DNA from: Eledone cirrhosa
Taxonomy: Eukaryota
Reading direction: 5' to 3'
Assembly: GCA_964016885.1 (NCBI GenBank)
Contig: OZ024745.1
Span: 34,596,001-34,660,000 of the forward strand
Length of the DNA stretch: 64,000 nt
Shown: positions 15,778-31,590 of the stretch, one piece after another
Numbering within the stretch: position 1 is the first letter of the stretch
Layout of the letters: every line of letters starts with the position of its first letter
Made by a program: the position numbers and the translations under genes
The notes under the pieces: model-generated
Told to the model about the DNA's origin: nothing
Seen by the model: the letters and a program-made list of their open reading frames with translations, nothing else
Databases searched by the model: none

Positions 15778-16564
15778 TTGTGTGTGTGTGTGTGTGTGTA
15801 AGTGTATGGTGGTATTTATTGAAAGCGAGTGAGAGGTCCAATAATGTCTTACCAGATTTTACAAACCCATTCAGCAATCCATTCTTATATGAGAAAGTTC
15901 CATGGCTGTATAAAATCCAGGAAACTAGAAAATTAATTTCCTGTCAATTCGACACACCATTATCAAGAACTGGGTTCTTAGCCTACAATGATGGCATGCT
16001 ACCTCATGACATTTCGGCTGAAAAAAAGCAACAAAAATAAACGATAAATTAAATGCCTGCATCTCGATTGCTAGGTGGAAATGGGTGGCTTATTACTTGA
16101 GTATTATGGGCAATCATAGATTCTGCTATCACTAAATACCATAGGTTATTTCTGATATATGTTGTCGCATCTTGATATTGTTTCATAATTCTATAATTAT
16201 TATGCTTGTGTGTACGTATATATATATTATTAAGGGAGATAAATACATCATATGGTTTTTATTGTATATCTTGCATCAGTACAGTTCCTTCAATTAGTGT
16301 ATACCTTTTCGTAACTTTCTCACGTTAACTTATGTATGTATGTGTATGTATATGTATGTATGTATGCATGTATTATGTATGTGTATGTATATGTTTGTAT
16401 GCATGTTTGTATGCATGTATTATGGATGTATATGTGCATGCTTGTATGTACGTACGTATGCATGTACGTACGTACGTATGTATGTATGTATGTATGCATG
16501 TATGTATGTATGTATGTATGTATGTATGTATGTATGTATGTATGTATGTATATATGTATGTATG

Positions 16565-17269: not shown

Positions 17270-18026
17270 CCCACCTATACTATATATACATGCAACCCTC
17301 CCAACATCTGATTACACAATCCGCGGAAAAACCCCAGCAACAGACCCACACACAAACACTTACACTATTTTCGCACCACGCCATCATACACCCACACCAC
17401 ATATAAACACACACACACAGAGACACGTGCGTATCCCCACATACACACACTCAGCCTCCGGACTCCACGCGCCCCCTCTCCCCCACCCCCTCCTACCCCT
17501 CTCCATCCACATGCATACACACACCGACTCACACCCCACCCATGTACACACCGGTTCCCCTATTACCCGAACATGGAATCTCGTTTTTTCCCCCAACTCT
17601 CACATTCACATCCACACACACACACACGTACACCTACACACATAGGCACACACCACCTTCAGCAGTCCCCGCTCGGACCCCCCCCCCTCGTCTCCCTCTC
17701 CATCCCTCCTCCACCCACCACCACCCCTACACGCCTCACACCCTTTCACCACTTGTTTCTTTTAATTTTAATTTTTTTTCTCTCCCAACACTTCCTTTTC
17801 CTCCCGTTTCTCTAACACCCCCTTTTTTTAAACTAATTTTTTTAATCTCTTTCCACTACTCCCCCACACACCTTCGGAACTCTCTTCCTACCCACTTTTC
17901 TCCTGATGAAGGACTTATGCCCGAAACGTCGTCCCCCACCCGCCACTCTCAAGCGTGAAACTAATAATAACTTTTGTACTGCCCCTTCGCTTCCACGTTT
18001 TTTTGTTTTCTGTTCACCGTCGCAAC

Positions 18027-18289: not shown

Positions 18290-18963
18290 GTACCATCTTG
18301 TATATGGTTTATATACAGAGCTAAATAGATTTATATACGAATACCAATTCAAGCCAATTTTTCCCTTATGTGTGACTCTCTCTCTTTCAAATCAATACTG
18401 CTTTCTCTATTATTTCACGAGCCATCATCCTAAACAAACCAAGCGAAGAATTCCCTTCTTTTCTTTATTTTCTCTTTCATATCATCTCTCCATATATATT
18501 CGCTGTAATTTTATTCTGTACCTTTCCAGTAAATCCTTCTCATTAATAAAACGCAAAGGAGACACAAACTTATGTATGTGCTTGCTTGCATACATATATA
18601 TATATATATTATTCAAAATATTAATAAATGAAGACATTCACCTAATCAAAATATATGTTTTATTATATATATTTCGAAGGTACTGTACTGTTTTTTCAGT
18701 ACGTCCTCGTCAGATAAAATATATGAATTGATGTATGACATACCTCAACTGTCTTGATGGTTCAATTCCAGTATTGGCAGTGATTTATTACAACAAATCT
18801 CAACATTTATATACCACAAATAATAACATGATAAACTTAAATATGATGAAGAAGAGGATGTGGAACGAGATATAGGTATAAGGGGGGGGGGGAGTATGAG
18901 AAAATGCAAGAAGAAATAAATAAACACATACATACATAAATATTTAAATGCGTAAATAAGCGT

Positions 18964-19600: not shown

Positions 19601-20899
19601 ATGGGTTTTCTATGACAACATCTAATTCCTGGCATATCTACAACAGTAGAGGTTCATTGTTATTATATGTTCTCATTCAATGACGACGTAAGCTGTTGTA
19701 TGTAGTAGAGTCACATTCCCCACAAGCATTCAAATAAACCAGCACTAGAAATTTGTAATCCTTAATAACATTTTTTAAGTCGATTAGAAGATCGCGTAAA
19801 ATTTATATATTTATAAAGATTAGGAGCGTACACAGTGGCCATAAAATGGATTAATATGAGCGGAAACCTATCATAATCCGATCCGAGATACCATACGGAA
19901 GCTCCGTCAGATGTAGCACCAGGGAGATTCTTAGAACAAAACCGACTCTGGCTTCACGAAGCTCTTCACGAAGTCTTCGCGAAGACTTTTCTAGAATATC
20001 GTGTATCTTGTGTCTGGCCATCTTCAGGTAACCATGTTTCAGACAAAGCAACAATATCTAGTTGATACCGATGGAACATTTTACCAATCGGAGCAGTTCG
20101 ACCTTTAGGGTGATTTGAGCTTGGTAAATCCAATAGCATGCGTACGTTCTAGGCCGCAATTTTCGAAGATATTGAAGTTGTATTCTGTTCGTTGTGTGTC
20201 TTATTATTCACTACTGCAAACCTCCCTGCTATTCTGAAGTAACTAATTTATATATCATTTCCAGTCAGGCTCACACAACACACCTGTCTTTCCTCATATA
20301 GTCACCCCTACTGTTTCTCACTAATCCCACGCTCTACATTAATCGTTATGCTTACCCTGTGTGATACCAAACCACATGGAGCAGCTCGTAATTTTATGAT
20401 AATGTGGCCATAGCTAATTTAAAACCTTCCAGCATAATTTCATGTAAGGACTTTTGATAAGTTATGTTCCAAACATAATGGAATCGTAATGCTATATTAT
20501 CAAATCACTCTAAATTCTTCATTATTTTCAAAATAATTTGTAACCTATAGCAAGTTTCTCTCATTAGAAATATGTTTTAAAAAGAGTTAATCGTTTTTCT
20601 TCTTCTGGAGTTAGCTTTCCTCACATGATTATTCAGTAGGCAGCAACTTACAGATGTTTAAGCGGAACTTTAAACGTATCGATCTTGATAGTCCACCTTT
20701 GCTAGGATTTACTCCTCAGACCATAAAAGTATTGTCATAGTCACAATTATCCTCGTCCTCTTTAAGTTTTCTTTCTGTCTTGTTAGCTTTCGGAAATGGT
20801 AATCCTAAACCATCAGAATCATTTGTTCTTTTTAGTTATTTGGCTTTAAAATTCGATGAAATATAATAATAGTAGGACACTGGCATTTAGATATAATTC

Positions 20900-23440: not shown

Positions 23441-23551
23441 CCATTGCCAATTCACCTTTTAAAATAATAACAGTTAAGCACTGGTGTTGATTGAACCGAT
23501 TAAACCTTCCCCCAGTCACCAACATGTAGTTCTATGCCAATGTTGATTCAA

Positions 23552-24902
23552 TATTACTATAACCATCACTATTACTATAACCATCACTATTACTATAACC
23601 ATCACTATTGCTATAGACATCACTATTACTATAACCATCACTATTACTATAACCATCACTATTGCTATAGACATCACTATTACTATAACCATCACTATTA
23701 CTATAACCATCACTATTGCTATAGACATCACTATTGCTATAACCATCACTATTACTATAACCATCACTATTACTATAACCATCACTATTACTATAACCAT
23801 CACTATTACTATAACCATCACTATTACGATAACCATCACTATTGCTATAGACATCACTATTACTATAACCATCACTATTACGATAACCATCACTATTGCT
23901 ATAGACATCACTATTACTATAACCATCACTATTACTATAACCATCACTATTACTATAACCATCACTATTACTATAACCATCACTATTACTATAACCATCA
24001 CTATTGCTATAGACATCACTATTACTATAACCATCACTATTACTATAACCATCACTATTACTATAACCATCACTATTGCTATAGACATCACTATTACTAT
24101 AACCATATTACTATAACCATCACTATTACTATAACCATCACTATTACTATAACCATCACTATTGCTATAGACATCACTATTACTATAACCATCACTATTA
24201 CTATAACCATCACTATTACTATAACCATCACTATTACTATAACCATCACTATTACTATAGACATCACTATTACTATAACCATCACTATTACTATAACCAT
24301 CACTATTTCTATAACCATCACTATTACTATAACCATCACTATTACTATAACCATCACTATTACTATAGACATCACTATTACTATAACCATCACTATTACT
24401 ATAACCATCACTATTACTATAGACATCACTATTACTATAACCATCACTATTACTATAACCATCACTATTGCTATAGACATCACTATTACTATAACCATCA
24501 CTATTACTATAACCATCACTATTACTATAGACATCACTATTACTATAACCATCACTATTACTATAACCATCACTATTACTATAACCATCACTATTACTAT
24601 AGACATCACTATTACTATAACCATCACTATTACTATAACCATCACTATTACTATAACCATCACTATTGCTATAGACATCACTATTACTATAACCATCACT
24701 ATTACTATAACCATCACTATTACTATAGACATCACTATTACTATAGACATCACTATTACTATAACCATCACTATTACTATAACCATCACTATTACTATAA
24801 CCATCACTATTACTATAACCATCACTATTACTATAACCATCACTATTACTATAACCATCACTATTACTATAACCATCACTATTACTATAGACATCACTAT
24901 TG
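23552..24902. repeat. 18-bp minisatellite, ~75 units (TATTACTATAACCATCAC and variants)
   Basis: Direct tandem array with variants TATTGCTATAGACATCAC and TATTACTATAGACATCAC. One 4-nt deletion near 24106. Confidence 0.97.
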
Positions 24903-27290: not shown

Positions 27291-27901
27291 TAGTTAATTG
27301 ATTGCCCGCTTCCCCTTTGCACCCGTGTGGCGAATTACTGATTTGGGGTTCATGGTCAGAGGCCATACACCAACAGCAAGAGAACTACTGACTAAGAAAG
27401 TGTTCTTTTAAGACTTATACGGAGCTAGACAACGACGACGACGAGTAAATATTAATAAGGATACAAAGAACTAGAATACGAAAAAAAAATAACGCTGATA
27501 CCTGCAAATGTGACAAAATAGGCGACAACTATTACAACAAAAACTGCAGCAATATACCGACATAAACGATTTTTCTAATGGTGAAGTGAAGATGAATAAG
27601 AAGATATGAATTCTATAGAATTGTTCCAATAGTTTCTTACTCCAGGGATTATCAAGCTATCACAAAGACATGCGATTATAGACTATTTCCTTCTTTATCT
27701 CTCAGCTAAATAAACTATACAGTGAATAACATCTCAATGAATATATAACTTTATACATAGAAATAACTATATCAATTATTAAATGTAGATATACATATAT
27801 GTGCGTGTGTGTTTGTGTGTGAGTATGCGCATGTATGTATACTCTCAAGCGTGAACCTAATACCAACAATCTTTGTACATGCCTATAGGAATATTCATTA
27901 T

Positions 27902-28110
27902 TTTTATATGGAAAAGACGCTTACAGGGCGAAAAGTATTTCATTCATATGAAATCATCAGGAATGTCCTAGAGCGTCCTGATGATTTCATACGAACGAAA
28001 CAGATTTAGTCCTGTAAAAGTATTTTCTATATAAAATATGCTTTCGTCTCAACTAACGTATTAAGTACATTATATAACTGGTTTCCTTTCGACCCCCTTT
28101 GGTAAACCAT
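27902..28110. mobile_element. Older imperfect twin-hammerhead palindrome (arms 27902-28036) with tail
   Basis: Plus strand CTGATGA-TTTCATACGAAC-GAAA-CAG-ATTTAGTC-CTG-TA (27978-28016), with a mirror core on the minus strand. Homologous to 29213-29344. Stem I is degraded. Confidence 0.8.
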
Positions 28111-28184: not shown

Positions 28185-28805
28185 ATGTGCATATGTTTCT
28201 ATGTGTGTATGTATGTGTGTGAAGAAAAGATTTGAAACTATTAGGGCTTGTAAGAAAGGATTAGTTAAGTAGGGTTTTTAAGTAATCGGCCCACTCAATC
28301 ACTGACAATGTTATTAATACACTTATAAACCTTAAAGATTTGTTGGAATTCGAAGAAATATTTATTGCATAAAAAAATGTTTCTTCAGATTTCAACAAAA
28401 TTTGCCAAGAGTTTCCAAGAACCCTGTTCATATTAAATTACTCCGTAGAATAATACTTGGAACCTATGTACTATACTGGGTTACACATCTCTTTAATTTT
28501 AACACAAAAGAGCTTAAAATAAATAAATATTAAAACCACTTCCGGCCAGCATGGTATAGCAAGCCACATCGGACACTTAAATAGTTCCTTTATTTTCCTT
28601 AGTCGAAGAGATACTAATCTTGAAATATCAGGTCATATGAATAAATTAAGGTGAAAAAGAACAAACCCTACTTTTTGTCCTTTTTGCGTTTGAATTTTTC
28701 TCTGACCAAAACCTGCAGTCGTGGCTTTCCAACTTCGAATTCTCTATATATAATATATATATATATAATATATAAGAACAAAAGATGGTTAAAAGAGTTC
28801 CATGT

Positions 28806-28874
28806 ATTTTATTATGCGCATTTCAAAAACAAATATCATCATGCAATAATATTTGTGTTTTCATCAGATAAAAC
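28806..28874 (-). ncRNA. Type I hammerhead ribozyme (mirror of 28995-29063)
   Basis: Reverse complement of the plus-strand HHR. The single difference lies in the stem II loop region. Confidence 0.82.
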
Positions 28875-28994
28875 AGGAAGACATGATATGAAGGTTAAAA
28901 AACACTTGTGGATAGTTCAGTTTTAAATCAACATATGTTGATTTAAAACTGAACTATCCACAAGTGTTTTTTAACCTTCATATCATGTCTTCCT

Positions 28995-29063
28995 GTTTTA
29001 TCTGATGAAAACACAAATATTATTGCATGATTATATTTGTTTTTGAAATGCGCATAATAAAAT
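28995..29063 (+). ncRNA. Type I hammerhead ribozyme with palindromic stem III
   Basis: Stem I GTTTTAT/ATAAAAT, CTGATGA (29002-29008), stem II AAACACAAATAT/ATATTTGTTTTT (11 of 12 pairs), GAAA (29045-29048), palindromic TGCGCA, predicted cleavage after AUA at 29056. Confidence 0.85.
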
Positions 29064-29225
29064 ACATGGAACTCTTTTAACCATCTTTTGTTCTTATATA
29101 TTATGTATACTCCAGTCCTACAAACTGTAGAGTGCTTCTTATCCGATATCTGCATTGCTTTATTGTACTACAATAAAACTCACCTCCTACATATATATAT
29201 ATATATATATAGTTTTAATATAGAA

Positions 29226-29278
29226 GAGATTCTACAGGACTAGAACTGTTTCATTCATTAGAAATCATCAGGAATCTC
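29226..29278 (-). ncRNA. Type I hammerhead ribozyme (mirror of 29279-29331)
   Basis: Exact reverse complement of the plus-strand HHR. Confidence 0.85.
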
Positions 29279-29331
29279 GAGATTCCTGATGATTTCTAAT
29301 GAATGAAACAGTTCTAGTCCTGTAGAATCTC
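29279..29331 (+). ncRNA. Type I hammerhead ribozyme
   Basis: Stem I GAGATTC/GAATCTC (7 bp), CTGATGA (29286-29292), stem II TTC/GAA with a U-U at the base and TAAT loop, GAAA (29305-29308), stem III CAG/CTG, predicted cleavage after GUA at 29324. Confidence 0.87.
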
Positions 29332-29412
29332 TTCTATATTAAAATTGTTATACTCTGCTATGTATTGAGTACCTTACTTACTGTGGTTACCTCCGATTCA
29401 ACCCGGAATAAC

Positions 29413-29440
<28 letters not shown>

Positions 29441-29444
<4 letters not shown>

Positions 29445-29552
29445 CAGATTAAAGTTTAAGCAAAGAAACAGGATCTTCTGAAACTCAGAAGTTTCAGAAG
29501 ATCCTGTTAAGAGTGAAAGCAGCGATTCTTTGCTTAAACTTTAATCTGTTAT
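29441..29552. repeat. Short asymmetric fold-back next to (TA)n
   Basis: Outer arms ATAACAGATTAAAGTTTAAGCAAAGAA/TTCTTTGCTTAAACTTTAATCTGTTAT. Inner hairpin ACAGGATCTTCTGAAACT/AGTTTCAGAAGATCCTGT. About 18 extra nt in the right arm. Confidence 0.88.
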
Positions 29553-29671
29553 TTTCATAAATATTTGCTCTAGGGTTCTTATATATTTGATATATATTTA
29601 TCCTTATCGAGCCCCCTTTGGATTTTTGTTTTCACATTTATTATTATTAATACATATATATATATATATAC

Positions 29672-30721: not shown

Positions 30722-30799
30722 ATATATATATACAGACACATGTTTACAGACACACATATGTGTTAATGTATGTGTATAAATATATATATATATATATAT

Positions 30800-30995
30800 A
30801 ACGAAGGAGGTATGGTAAGGAACCAGATGGACCATAACGCACCAGAGTACTCAATACTTAGGGTAGTAGAGTGGGTAATAGGAAATAGTTTAACCCCTAC
30901 GGCAGAGCTCAAGCCGTTTCGACAGCTATTTCTGAATCCAGAAATAGCCGTCGAAACGGCTTGAGCTCTGCCGTCGGGGTTAAACATTTTCCTAT
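30800..30995. mobile_element. Half-hammerhead palindrome folded at stem II (arms ~30878-30995) with tail
   Basis: Central hairpin GAC(A/G)GCTATTTCTG-AATC-CAGAAATAGCCGTC, then GAAA-CGGC-TTGAGCTCT-GCCG-TC-GGGG. No CTGANGA at the expected position. Confidence 0.85.
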
Positions 30996-31011
30996 ATATA
31001 TATATTTATAT

Positions 31012-31196
31012 ATAACGAAGGAAATGTGGTAAAGAACCAAATGGACCATAACGCACCAAAGTACTCAATACTTAGGGTAGTAGAGTGGGTAATAGGAACA
31101 AGTAGGACCCCGACGGCTGAGCTCAAGCCGTTTCGACGGCTATTCAGAATTAGCCGTGGAAACGGCTTGAGCTCAGCCGTCGGGGTCCTACTTGTT

Positions 31197-31201
<5 letters not shown>
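31012..31201. mobile_element. Second half-hammerhead palindrome folded at stem II (arms 31092-31201) with tail
   Basis: ACGGCTA-TTCAGAAT-TAGCCGT, then GAAA-CGGCT-TGAGCTC-AGCCG-TC-GGGG. Same tail as 30800 but a different loop and flank. Confidence 0.85.
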
Positions 31202-31238
<37 letters not shown>

Positions 31239-31239
31239 T

Positions 31240-31590
31240 AAGTTTGATGAACAGGCAGACACAATTCATCTAATTTTTCTTCTTAGTCCGGAGAAATTAA
31301 CTAAACAAATAATCAATTAAACGGAGCTAAGTTTAAAATGTAAGTTTGAATAAATAGAGGAATGTTGGTAAATATTGGTAAACATATATCTATTATTTCT
31401 TCAAACTTACATTTTAAACTTAGCTCCGTTTAATTGATTATTTATTTAGTTAATTTCTCCGGCCTAAGAAGAACAATTGGGTAAATTTGATGTGCCTGCT
31501 CTTCAAACATATACTTTTATATTGGTCTGATTAATGATTATTTATTTAATTCATTTATTGAGCCACATCGTTGAAGGTGGGCTACACTCC
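31240..31590. repeat. Imperfect fold-back with ~115-bp arms (31240-31510) between TA tracts
   Basis: CCGGAGAAATTAACTAAA...ACGGAGCTAAGTTTAAAATGTAAGTTTGAA versus TTCAAACTTACATTTTAAACTTAGCTCCGT...TTAATTTCTCCGG. Confidence 0.85.

Follow-up and report, generated by a model that had tools for sequence, protein, structure and literature searches.

Head-to-head hammerhead stubs of a Penelope-like retroelement in Eledone cirrhosa and what their joints suggest about the copied RNA

Introduction

How do two complete hammerhead ribozymes come to stand head to head, with no nucleotide between them, in the genome of Eledone cirrhosa, and does the pair act as a unit or record some other event? The locus lies in a 64,000-nt stretch of contig OZ024745.1 (positions 34,596,001 to 34,660,000), which we call the window and to which all coordinates refer unless stated otherwise. 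Comparisons with published elements concern parts of the papers cited.

Results

The locus is a perfect palindrome of unequal outer length

In the assembly, the palindrome is as perfect as the preliminary description of this DNA had stated (132 bp, no spacer): its arms, 29213-29278 and 29279-29344, measure 66 nt each and are 100% complementary. In shuffled versions of the window (n = 20), the longest perfect arm was only 7 to 11 nt. Two complete hammerheads had been described as well, and indeed GAGATTC-CTGATGA-TTTCTAATGAAT-GAAA-CAGTTCTAGTCCTG-TA-GAATCTC was found on either strand. The symmetry stops at 29344 solely through one substitution at 29345 (T, where the family has C). Past 29344 only the right arm continues, with a tail that reaches 29413; on either side, the outer end merges into (TA)n. 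Below, the family to which the palindrome belongs is called family A and that of its left neighbor family B. The features are the following.

29188..29210, no strand: left (TA)n target tract, at the tail end of the neighboring family B stub
29211..29277, minus strand: short arm without a tail, covering element +1 to about +67 (the hammerhead and CTATATTAAAAC); the 3' end enters the left (TA)n
29227..29277, minus strand: mirror hammerhead; the predicted cut gives a 5' end at 29232
29278..29279, no strand: central CG, one non-native G before each arm; the native base is C; likely the copied RNA cap
29280..29330, plus strand: type I hammerhead; predicted cut after GUA 29324
29280..29413, plus strand: long arm, element +1 to +134, hammerhead and one-sided tail ending GGAATAACG, then (TA)n
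29414..29443, no strand: right (TA)15 target tract

The symmetry axis had been placed at the 5' base of stem I. It is tied to stem I but was set off by one, since the first G assigned to the stem (29279, mirrored at 29278) does not belong to the element: intact copies have C there, and the native stem I comprises 6 bp from 29280.

The arms carry a type I hammerhead

The hammerhead at 29280..29330 consists of a 6-bp stem I, the CUGAUGA core, a stem II of 3 bp above a U-U pair, GAAA, and a 4-bp stem III whose loop holds a centered palindromic CUAG. As read from the sequence, the first base pair of stem II is thus a U-U mismatch. With its CUGANGA and GAAA core, three stems, and NUH site, the motif is a type I hammerhead, and the cut positions predicted earlier (29325 on the plus strand and 29232 on the minus strand; GUA at 29322-29324) are correct. 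Rfam gave no match in the window at the gathering threshold. Across 18 aligned rows, 93% of the stem cells were paired, and stem I contains one compensatory change between subfamilies, a single event.

Folded alone, the single motif is predicted to adopt the hammerhead (-8.5 kcal/mol), with no advantage over shuffled sequences (z -0.27). For the native monomer, an alternative fold is predicted to be preferred (-7.9 versus -5.4), and prediction with two molecules gave a double hammerhead through loop III (-21.4 kcal/mol). The 132-nt RNA, by comparison, is predicted to form a single hairpin of -104.4 kcal/mol. In published tests, isolated hammerheads of Penelope-like elements (PLEs) were inactive or weak as monomers or depended on the element's protein (parts of PMC4209133 and PMC11167929), so a lack of cleavage by an isolated arm would not refute the motif. 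Opposite-strand hammerhead pairs are known in PLEs, where they lie 100 to 700 bp apart in the terminal repeats (pLTRs) and are likely dimer dependent (PMC4209133, in part). The motif described here shares with these the type I fold and the palindromic loop III, but its stem III keeps 4 bp, so that it is not a strict minimal hammerhead, and the pair distance is zero.

Because both arms hold the whole ribozyme, the RNA that was copied was uncleaved. None of 190 matches had an arm starting at the ribozyme cut, in a sample biased by the retrieval of most loci through the upstream core. At three other loci (L084, L410, and L413), the partner arm extends no further than the 3' strand of stem I; the fusion runs through stem I itself and leaves one hammerhead in the loop. 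These joints could stem from a cleaved RNA template.

The palindrome is a terminal repeat stub of a Hydra-type element

A word-based DNA search of the species' own genome came back empty, as it skips very common words, while pattern searches returned thousands of copies. In the 3.0 Gb scanned, a 29-nt core pattern matched at 20,396 sites with at most 2 mismatches (control, 0). These matches are skewed between strands genome-wide (12,209 versus 8,187), which large arrays might explain. At one locus (L040; G000:C1:83679791-83691710), at least 12 pLTR copies with same-strand hammerheads lie about 1.08 kb apart, a spacing that could allow dimeric folding.

Direct pLTR copies flank an open frame of 758 codons at one locus, L032. 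From its Met, the protein has 711 amino acids and contains RWR at 37, DKT at 115, CNCLNKEAC at 565, CDLC at 665, and CMH at 693, together with YRDD and a C-terminal endonuclease motif, VY..YIG. A single frame that encodes reverse transcriptase (RT) plus a C-terminal GIY-YIG domain, pLTRs in direct (partly tandem) and inverted arrangement, and a one-ended tail are the hallmarks of endonuclease-bearing (EN+) PLEs. Pfam returned nothing for this protein at 0.001, GIY-YIG appearing below the cut-off with an E value of 0.012. At an E value of at most 1e-20, the protein has 632 relatives; the best 120 are 39 to 54% identical to it and nearly all unnamed.

The element resembles the Hydra clade, which includes Hydra-1_Obim (PMC8557442, in part), in the C-terminal GIY-YIG, the motif set (an RWK-like RWR, DKT, a CxCX5C linker, CxxC, and CxH), the canonical hammerhead, and insertion into (TA)n. 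The Hydra clade is further described as lacking a CCHH finger within the GIY-YIG core; between VY and YIG, a count on the unaligned sequences gave two Cys in family A and one in family B. The hammerhead of Hydra-1_Obim, compared by eye only, is unlike the present one and thus belongs to a different family. Furthermore, the Hydra clade tends to lengths below 3 kb, a tendency rather than a strict criterion in the part of PMC8557442 compared, whereas the L032 unit spans about 6 kb between two hammerheads, mostly simple repeats, with a long microsatellite-rich 3' region. An assignment to the Naiad clade was rejected, since in Naiad the endonuclease motif is N-terminal and the canonical hammerhead is missing. 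Likewise rejected was a non-LTR retrozyme: the locus holds two inverted copies only and no tandem repeat.

The long arm in the window differs from another copy (L004) at 1 position over 134 nt, which indicates that the insertion is young. Copies running from the tail into the side of the open frame were found at only 115 places. We conclude that the palindrome is a pLTR stub of a young Hydra-type PLE with RT and GIY-YIG, and that the locus is real, young, and of textbook layout, a new family member with known PLE anatomy. Elsewhere in the genome, a different open frame with RT and GIY-YIG is inserted between two inverted arms of the family (L034:1826-4732, minus strand).

Head-to-head stubs are abundant and share one layout

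Head-to-head cores within 14 nt of each other occur at 4,498 loci at least (control, 1), as counted with a short pattern that also takes in a sister subfamily. At 1,113 loci both arms reach +2 with 1 to 13 nt between them, and the exact join seen in the window occurs at 5. We retrieved 120 head-to-head loci: 78 were assigned to this subfamily and 16 to its sister, and the other 26, mixed or decayed, were left out; the junction samples come almost all from one contig (C1). Exactly one tail arm and one short arm were present at 76 of the 78 scored loci. The short arms at these 76 end near +60 (19), +67 (37), and +73 (9); the tail arms end near +137 to +141, the last few bases being common to the TA target.

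An inverted, 5'-truncated copy and a one-sided tail are known PLE anatomy (PMC8557442, PMC3846280; both in part). In the parts compared, EN+ PLE insertions share with the present stubs the head-to-head inverted copy, the junction palindrome, the one-ended tail, the (TA)n target, and TATA- and Inr-like motifs in the pLTR. In the present stubs, by contrast, each half is reduced to the hammerhead, the tail measures about 70 nt instead of 30 to 40 nt, and the joints cluster at a single base, where a non-native G is found. This last feature favors a sense, capped template over self-priming on antisense RNA (PMC3846280, in part).

Raw reads of a second study contain head-to-head joints of family A (17 and 10 reads at one joint) as well as the native upstream flank, so the stub class is no assembly artefact. 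Across the axis in the window, 3 and 5 raw reads cross at 95% likeness; as the family is highly repetitive, these may derive from other copies.

The two arms at a locus agree with each other. At one inherited variant, 45 loci had T in both arms, 33 had A in both, and none was mixed, where about 38 mixed loci would be expected under free mixing, and at a second site we counted 69 AA, 8 TT, and 1 AG. The two arms of a locus therefore share a single RNA or a single source copy as their origin; bursts of separate subfamilies could make the concordance look higher than it is. Fold-back of a single cDNA would give equal concordance, which counts against our preferred explanation, two cDNAs. Among the long inverted copies (11 scorable of 13), the tail arm exceeded the short arm in 7; in 3 the short arm was the longer one, and in 1 they were equal. 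That either arm may be the longer one is as expected for two separate cDNAs.

The axis coincides with the 5' boundary of the element

Intact copies read TATAAATA, then 22 nt ending in CCC, then AGATTCC. Counting from the TATA box, the first A of AGATTCC (29280), which we number +1, comes 30 nt downstream; it conforms to the initiator consensus YYANWYY. In the sister subfamily, whose spacer has diverged, 18 of 30 loci keep a TATA-like box at -29 to -31; the remaining 12 include several truncated stubs and several with a degenerate box.

We examined 93 arms from loci drawn from the first list of core matches, a set in which a tandem duplication in L040 is counted several times. Of these arms, 34 start at +1 to +3, 5 at -1 to -10, and 54 further upstream. 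Family A thus has a sharp boundary at +1/+2. Many of its arms halt at +2 and are preceded by T (25 of 42), which counts against our preferred explanation. The promoter-like motifs of the intact copies are absent at the stub in the window.

Family B, whose open frame is 37% identical and which matches at 15,994 sites, including the window's neighbor at 28760-29109, has a sharp boundary of its own about 70 nt above its hammerhead. Since family B turns around so far upstream of the ribozyme, the axis tracks the 5' boundary of the element and not the ribozyme. A TATA box at -30 was not found in family B, which counts against a general promoter reading.

A non-native G often precedes the boundary

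Where the native base is C, exact copies genome-wide carry G before +1 in 598 cases and A or T in 104. In the first 50 of the 1,113 loci, 38 arms extend to +1 and have two or more letters beyond it; G was found in 28 of them, 10 further arms being left out for want of room for an extra base. After removal of four loci in which the G might be the partner's, the figure was 24 of 30. Internally truncated arm ends had an adjacent G in 3 of 24 cases (Fisher p about 1e-6 against the +1 ends). Counted by hand, 100 family B arms had G in 53, the native C in 21, T in 20, and A in 6 (15 of 30 with G by script), while its internal ends had G in 2 of 14, some of them possibly alignment breaks. Fourteen of 100 arm readings begin with CC.

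For LINE-1, a cap-derived extra G is described at complete 5' ends only (PMC11702581, in part). The likeness lies in a single extra G confined to ends that reach the start of the RNA; the difference is that the LINE-1 end is joined to target DNA and the end described here to a second cDNA end. As the source of the G, we favor the cap, judging by the base patterns at the joints, with snap-back of the cDNA and slippage as probable contributors. A literature search that reached few subscription journals turned up no PLE paper describing a cap-derived G or transcription starting at stem I.

Neighboring repeats

The stub to the left of the palindrome (28760-29187) belongs to family B. It is a 350-bp palindrome with arms of 175 nt (99%) and a one-sided tail, one of about 16,000 copies. 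Its hammerhead is of a second type, with a long stem II and GCGC in loop III; its perfect axis falls on CATATG, a self-complementary sequence located at the 5' boundary of the family. The family B open frame (L333, 821 codons) has the same Hydra-type motifs. On the other side, a third hairpin-forming repeat, very deep in reads, follows right after the TA tract (29444-29564); a motif scan found no hammerhead in it. The three stubs form a chain in one TA microsatellite.

An older, decayed head-to-head pair related to the palindrome's own family lies at about 27901-28060; at its joint, one side again carries CC and the opposite arm is preceded by G. At 30780-31478 there are two 214-bp tandem copies of a palindromic stub whose hammerhead is reduced to its back half (GAAA-stem III-GUC); 31272-31478 contains a further imperfect inverted repeat. 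Solo hammerhead-like motifs adjoin TA tracts at 18658-18719 (minus strand) and about 17900-17935 (plus strand). An 18-bp tandem repeat occupies 23548-24901 (75 copies, 92% matches).

Discussion

The explanation we prefer, at a probability of roughly 0.6, is that both cut ends of the (TA)n target primed reverse transcription on a sense, likely capped RNA predicted to start at the first base of stem I, and that the 3' ends of the two cDNAs were then joined. Transcription would start at +1 (29280), directed by the TATA box at -30 and the initiator-like motif. Judging by the arm ends and by in vitro work on another PLE, reverse transcription would begin at about +60/67 for the short arm and at about +137 for the tail arm. 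Each cDNA would run off the 5' end of the RNA after 67 or 137 nt and gain a C opposite the cap; the two 3' ends would be joined blunt, through microhomology, or after slippage. At the window locus, both cDNAs would have been complete and their clean join would have produced C|G. Should the enzyme require sequence that lies downstream of the tail, as it does in the in vitro work (PMC11167929, in part), RNA started at +1 would yield just such a stub, and full copies would need tandem transcripts.

That in vitro work concerns PAc, a Poseidon element (PMC11167929, in part): cutting and extension take place on both target strands, the tail is delimited by two RT start sites, and the substrate is the uncleaved RNA. 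In all three respects PAc is like the reading given here, but it belongs to another clade, and the parts of the paper that were compared do not treat the 5' joint, the start site, or a cap-derived base. The fixed ends of the short and tail arms match the two-start picture of PAc, and self-priming on antisense RNA (PMC3846280) fits less well.

The nearest competitor keeps the double priming but makes boundary and extra G structural: the cDNA would snap back on its own terminal stem and add one or a few templated bases, with no cap involved. As this requires, C comes next after the 3' strand of the terminal stem in both families (after stem I in family A and after CATAT in family B), and longer additions that look templated do occur, at junctions with a snap-back-type match of 3 to 5 nt (L153, L173, and L174) and at CATG joints of family B. 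Snap-back leaves the CC additions unexplained and does not account for a TATA box that keeps its distance from +1 where the spacer has diverged. Under snap-back, the stem of 13 sister-subfamily copies predicts A before +1; 11 of these have G there. This test is weak, given that only 2 of the 11 Gs are free of partner-arm ambiguity by our reading; these two clear Gs speak against snap-back. On balance we regard snap-back as an unlikely full account, and it can coexist with capped double priming. Less probable still is single priming, in which one cDNA or an antisense RNA folds back, primes itself, and copies the second arm (PMC3846280, in part). It accommodates the concordance of the arms at all inherited variants tested and the tail arm being the longer in 7 of 11 long copies, but not the cases in which the other arm is longer. 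Loops of zero or one base with a non-native G on both arms would also be hard for a hairpin primer, and the fixed ends of the short arm agree better with two start sites (PMC11167929, in part).

The preliminary description had viewed the pair as a duplicated minimal ribozyme serving as a conditional cleavage or double-stranded RNA switch at this locus. One element of that view stands as a predicted fold: in a read-through RNA, the antisense arm would trap the ribozyme, given the single hairpin of -104.4 against -8.5 kcal/mol for the hammerhead, and such trapping is plausible as a side effect of the hairpin. The rest did not hold. The pair is an insertion by-product seen thousands of times in equivalent stubs with ragged joints, the exact axis occurring at 5 loci, so neither the duplication of a self-cleaving unit as such nor a switch is supported. 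The palindrome is nearly identical to a mobile family and sits in a chain of unrelated stubs within one TA tract. Moreover, there is no promoter near its center, the stub lacking the promoter-like motifs that intact copies have upstream; a stub that has no promoter of its own is likely inert, which makes a cleavage switch improbable. We consider the switch very improbable overall. Perfect zero-spacer palindromes can be artefacts, and the axis-crossing reads at 95% likeness may belong to other copies, so that a fold-back chimera of library or assembly deserves mention; of all readings we give it the least credence. The arms differ in their family-typical outer ends and in one private substitution, the non-native central bases recur at other loci, the raw reads of the second study contain the family's joints, and 1.3 kb upstream there is an old, decayed pair built in the same way.

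The locus itself is ordinary, one stub among thousands; its interest lies in what the joints have in common. Somewhat better than even, in our estimate, are the odds that the stubs preserve, like fossils, a reaction in which one capped sense RNA started exactly at stem I, was copied twice, once from each cut strand of the target, and left two cDNA ends with a cap-derived C joined to each other. The joints bear on a point left open in the parts of PMC8557442 and PMC3846280 compared, namely, the origin of the inverted ends of PLEs and which RNA strand is copied. If true, capped double priming would settle whether PLEs copy sense RNA by double priming or antisense RNA by self-priming. It would further account for the mainly 135-nt stubs that RNAs from the pLTR promoter give and for full copies needing tandem transcripts, as the only 115 tail-to-frame copies would reflect. 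A non-native G confined to ends at the TATA-linked position would be a cheap genome-scale marker of the template's 5' end. Finally, the thousands of perfect hairpins, if transcribed, could be a source of double-stranded RNA.
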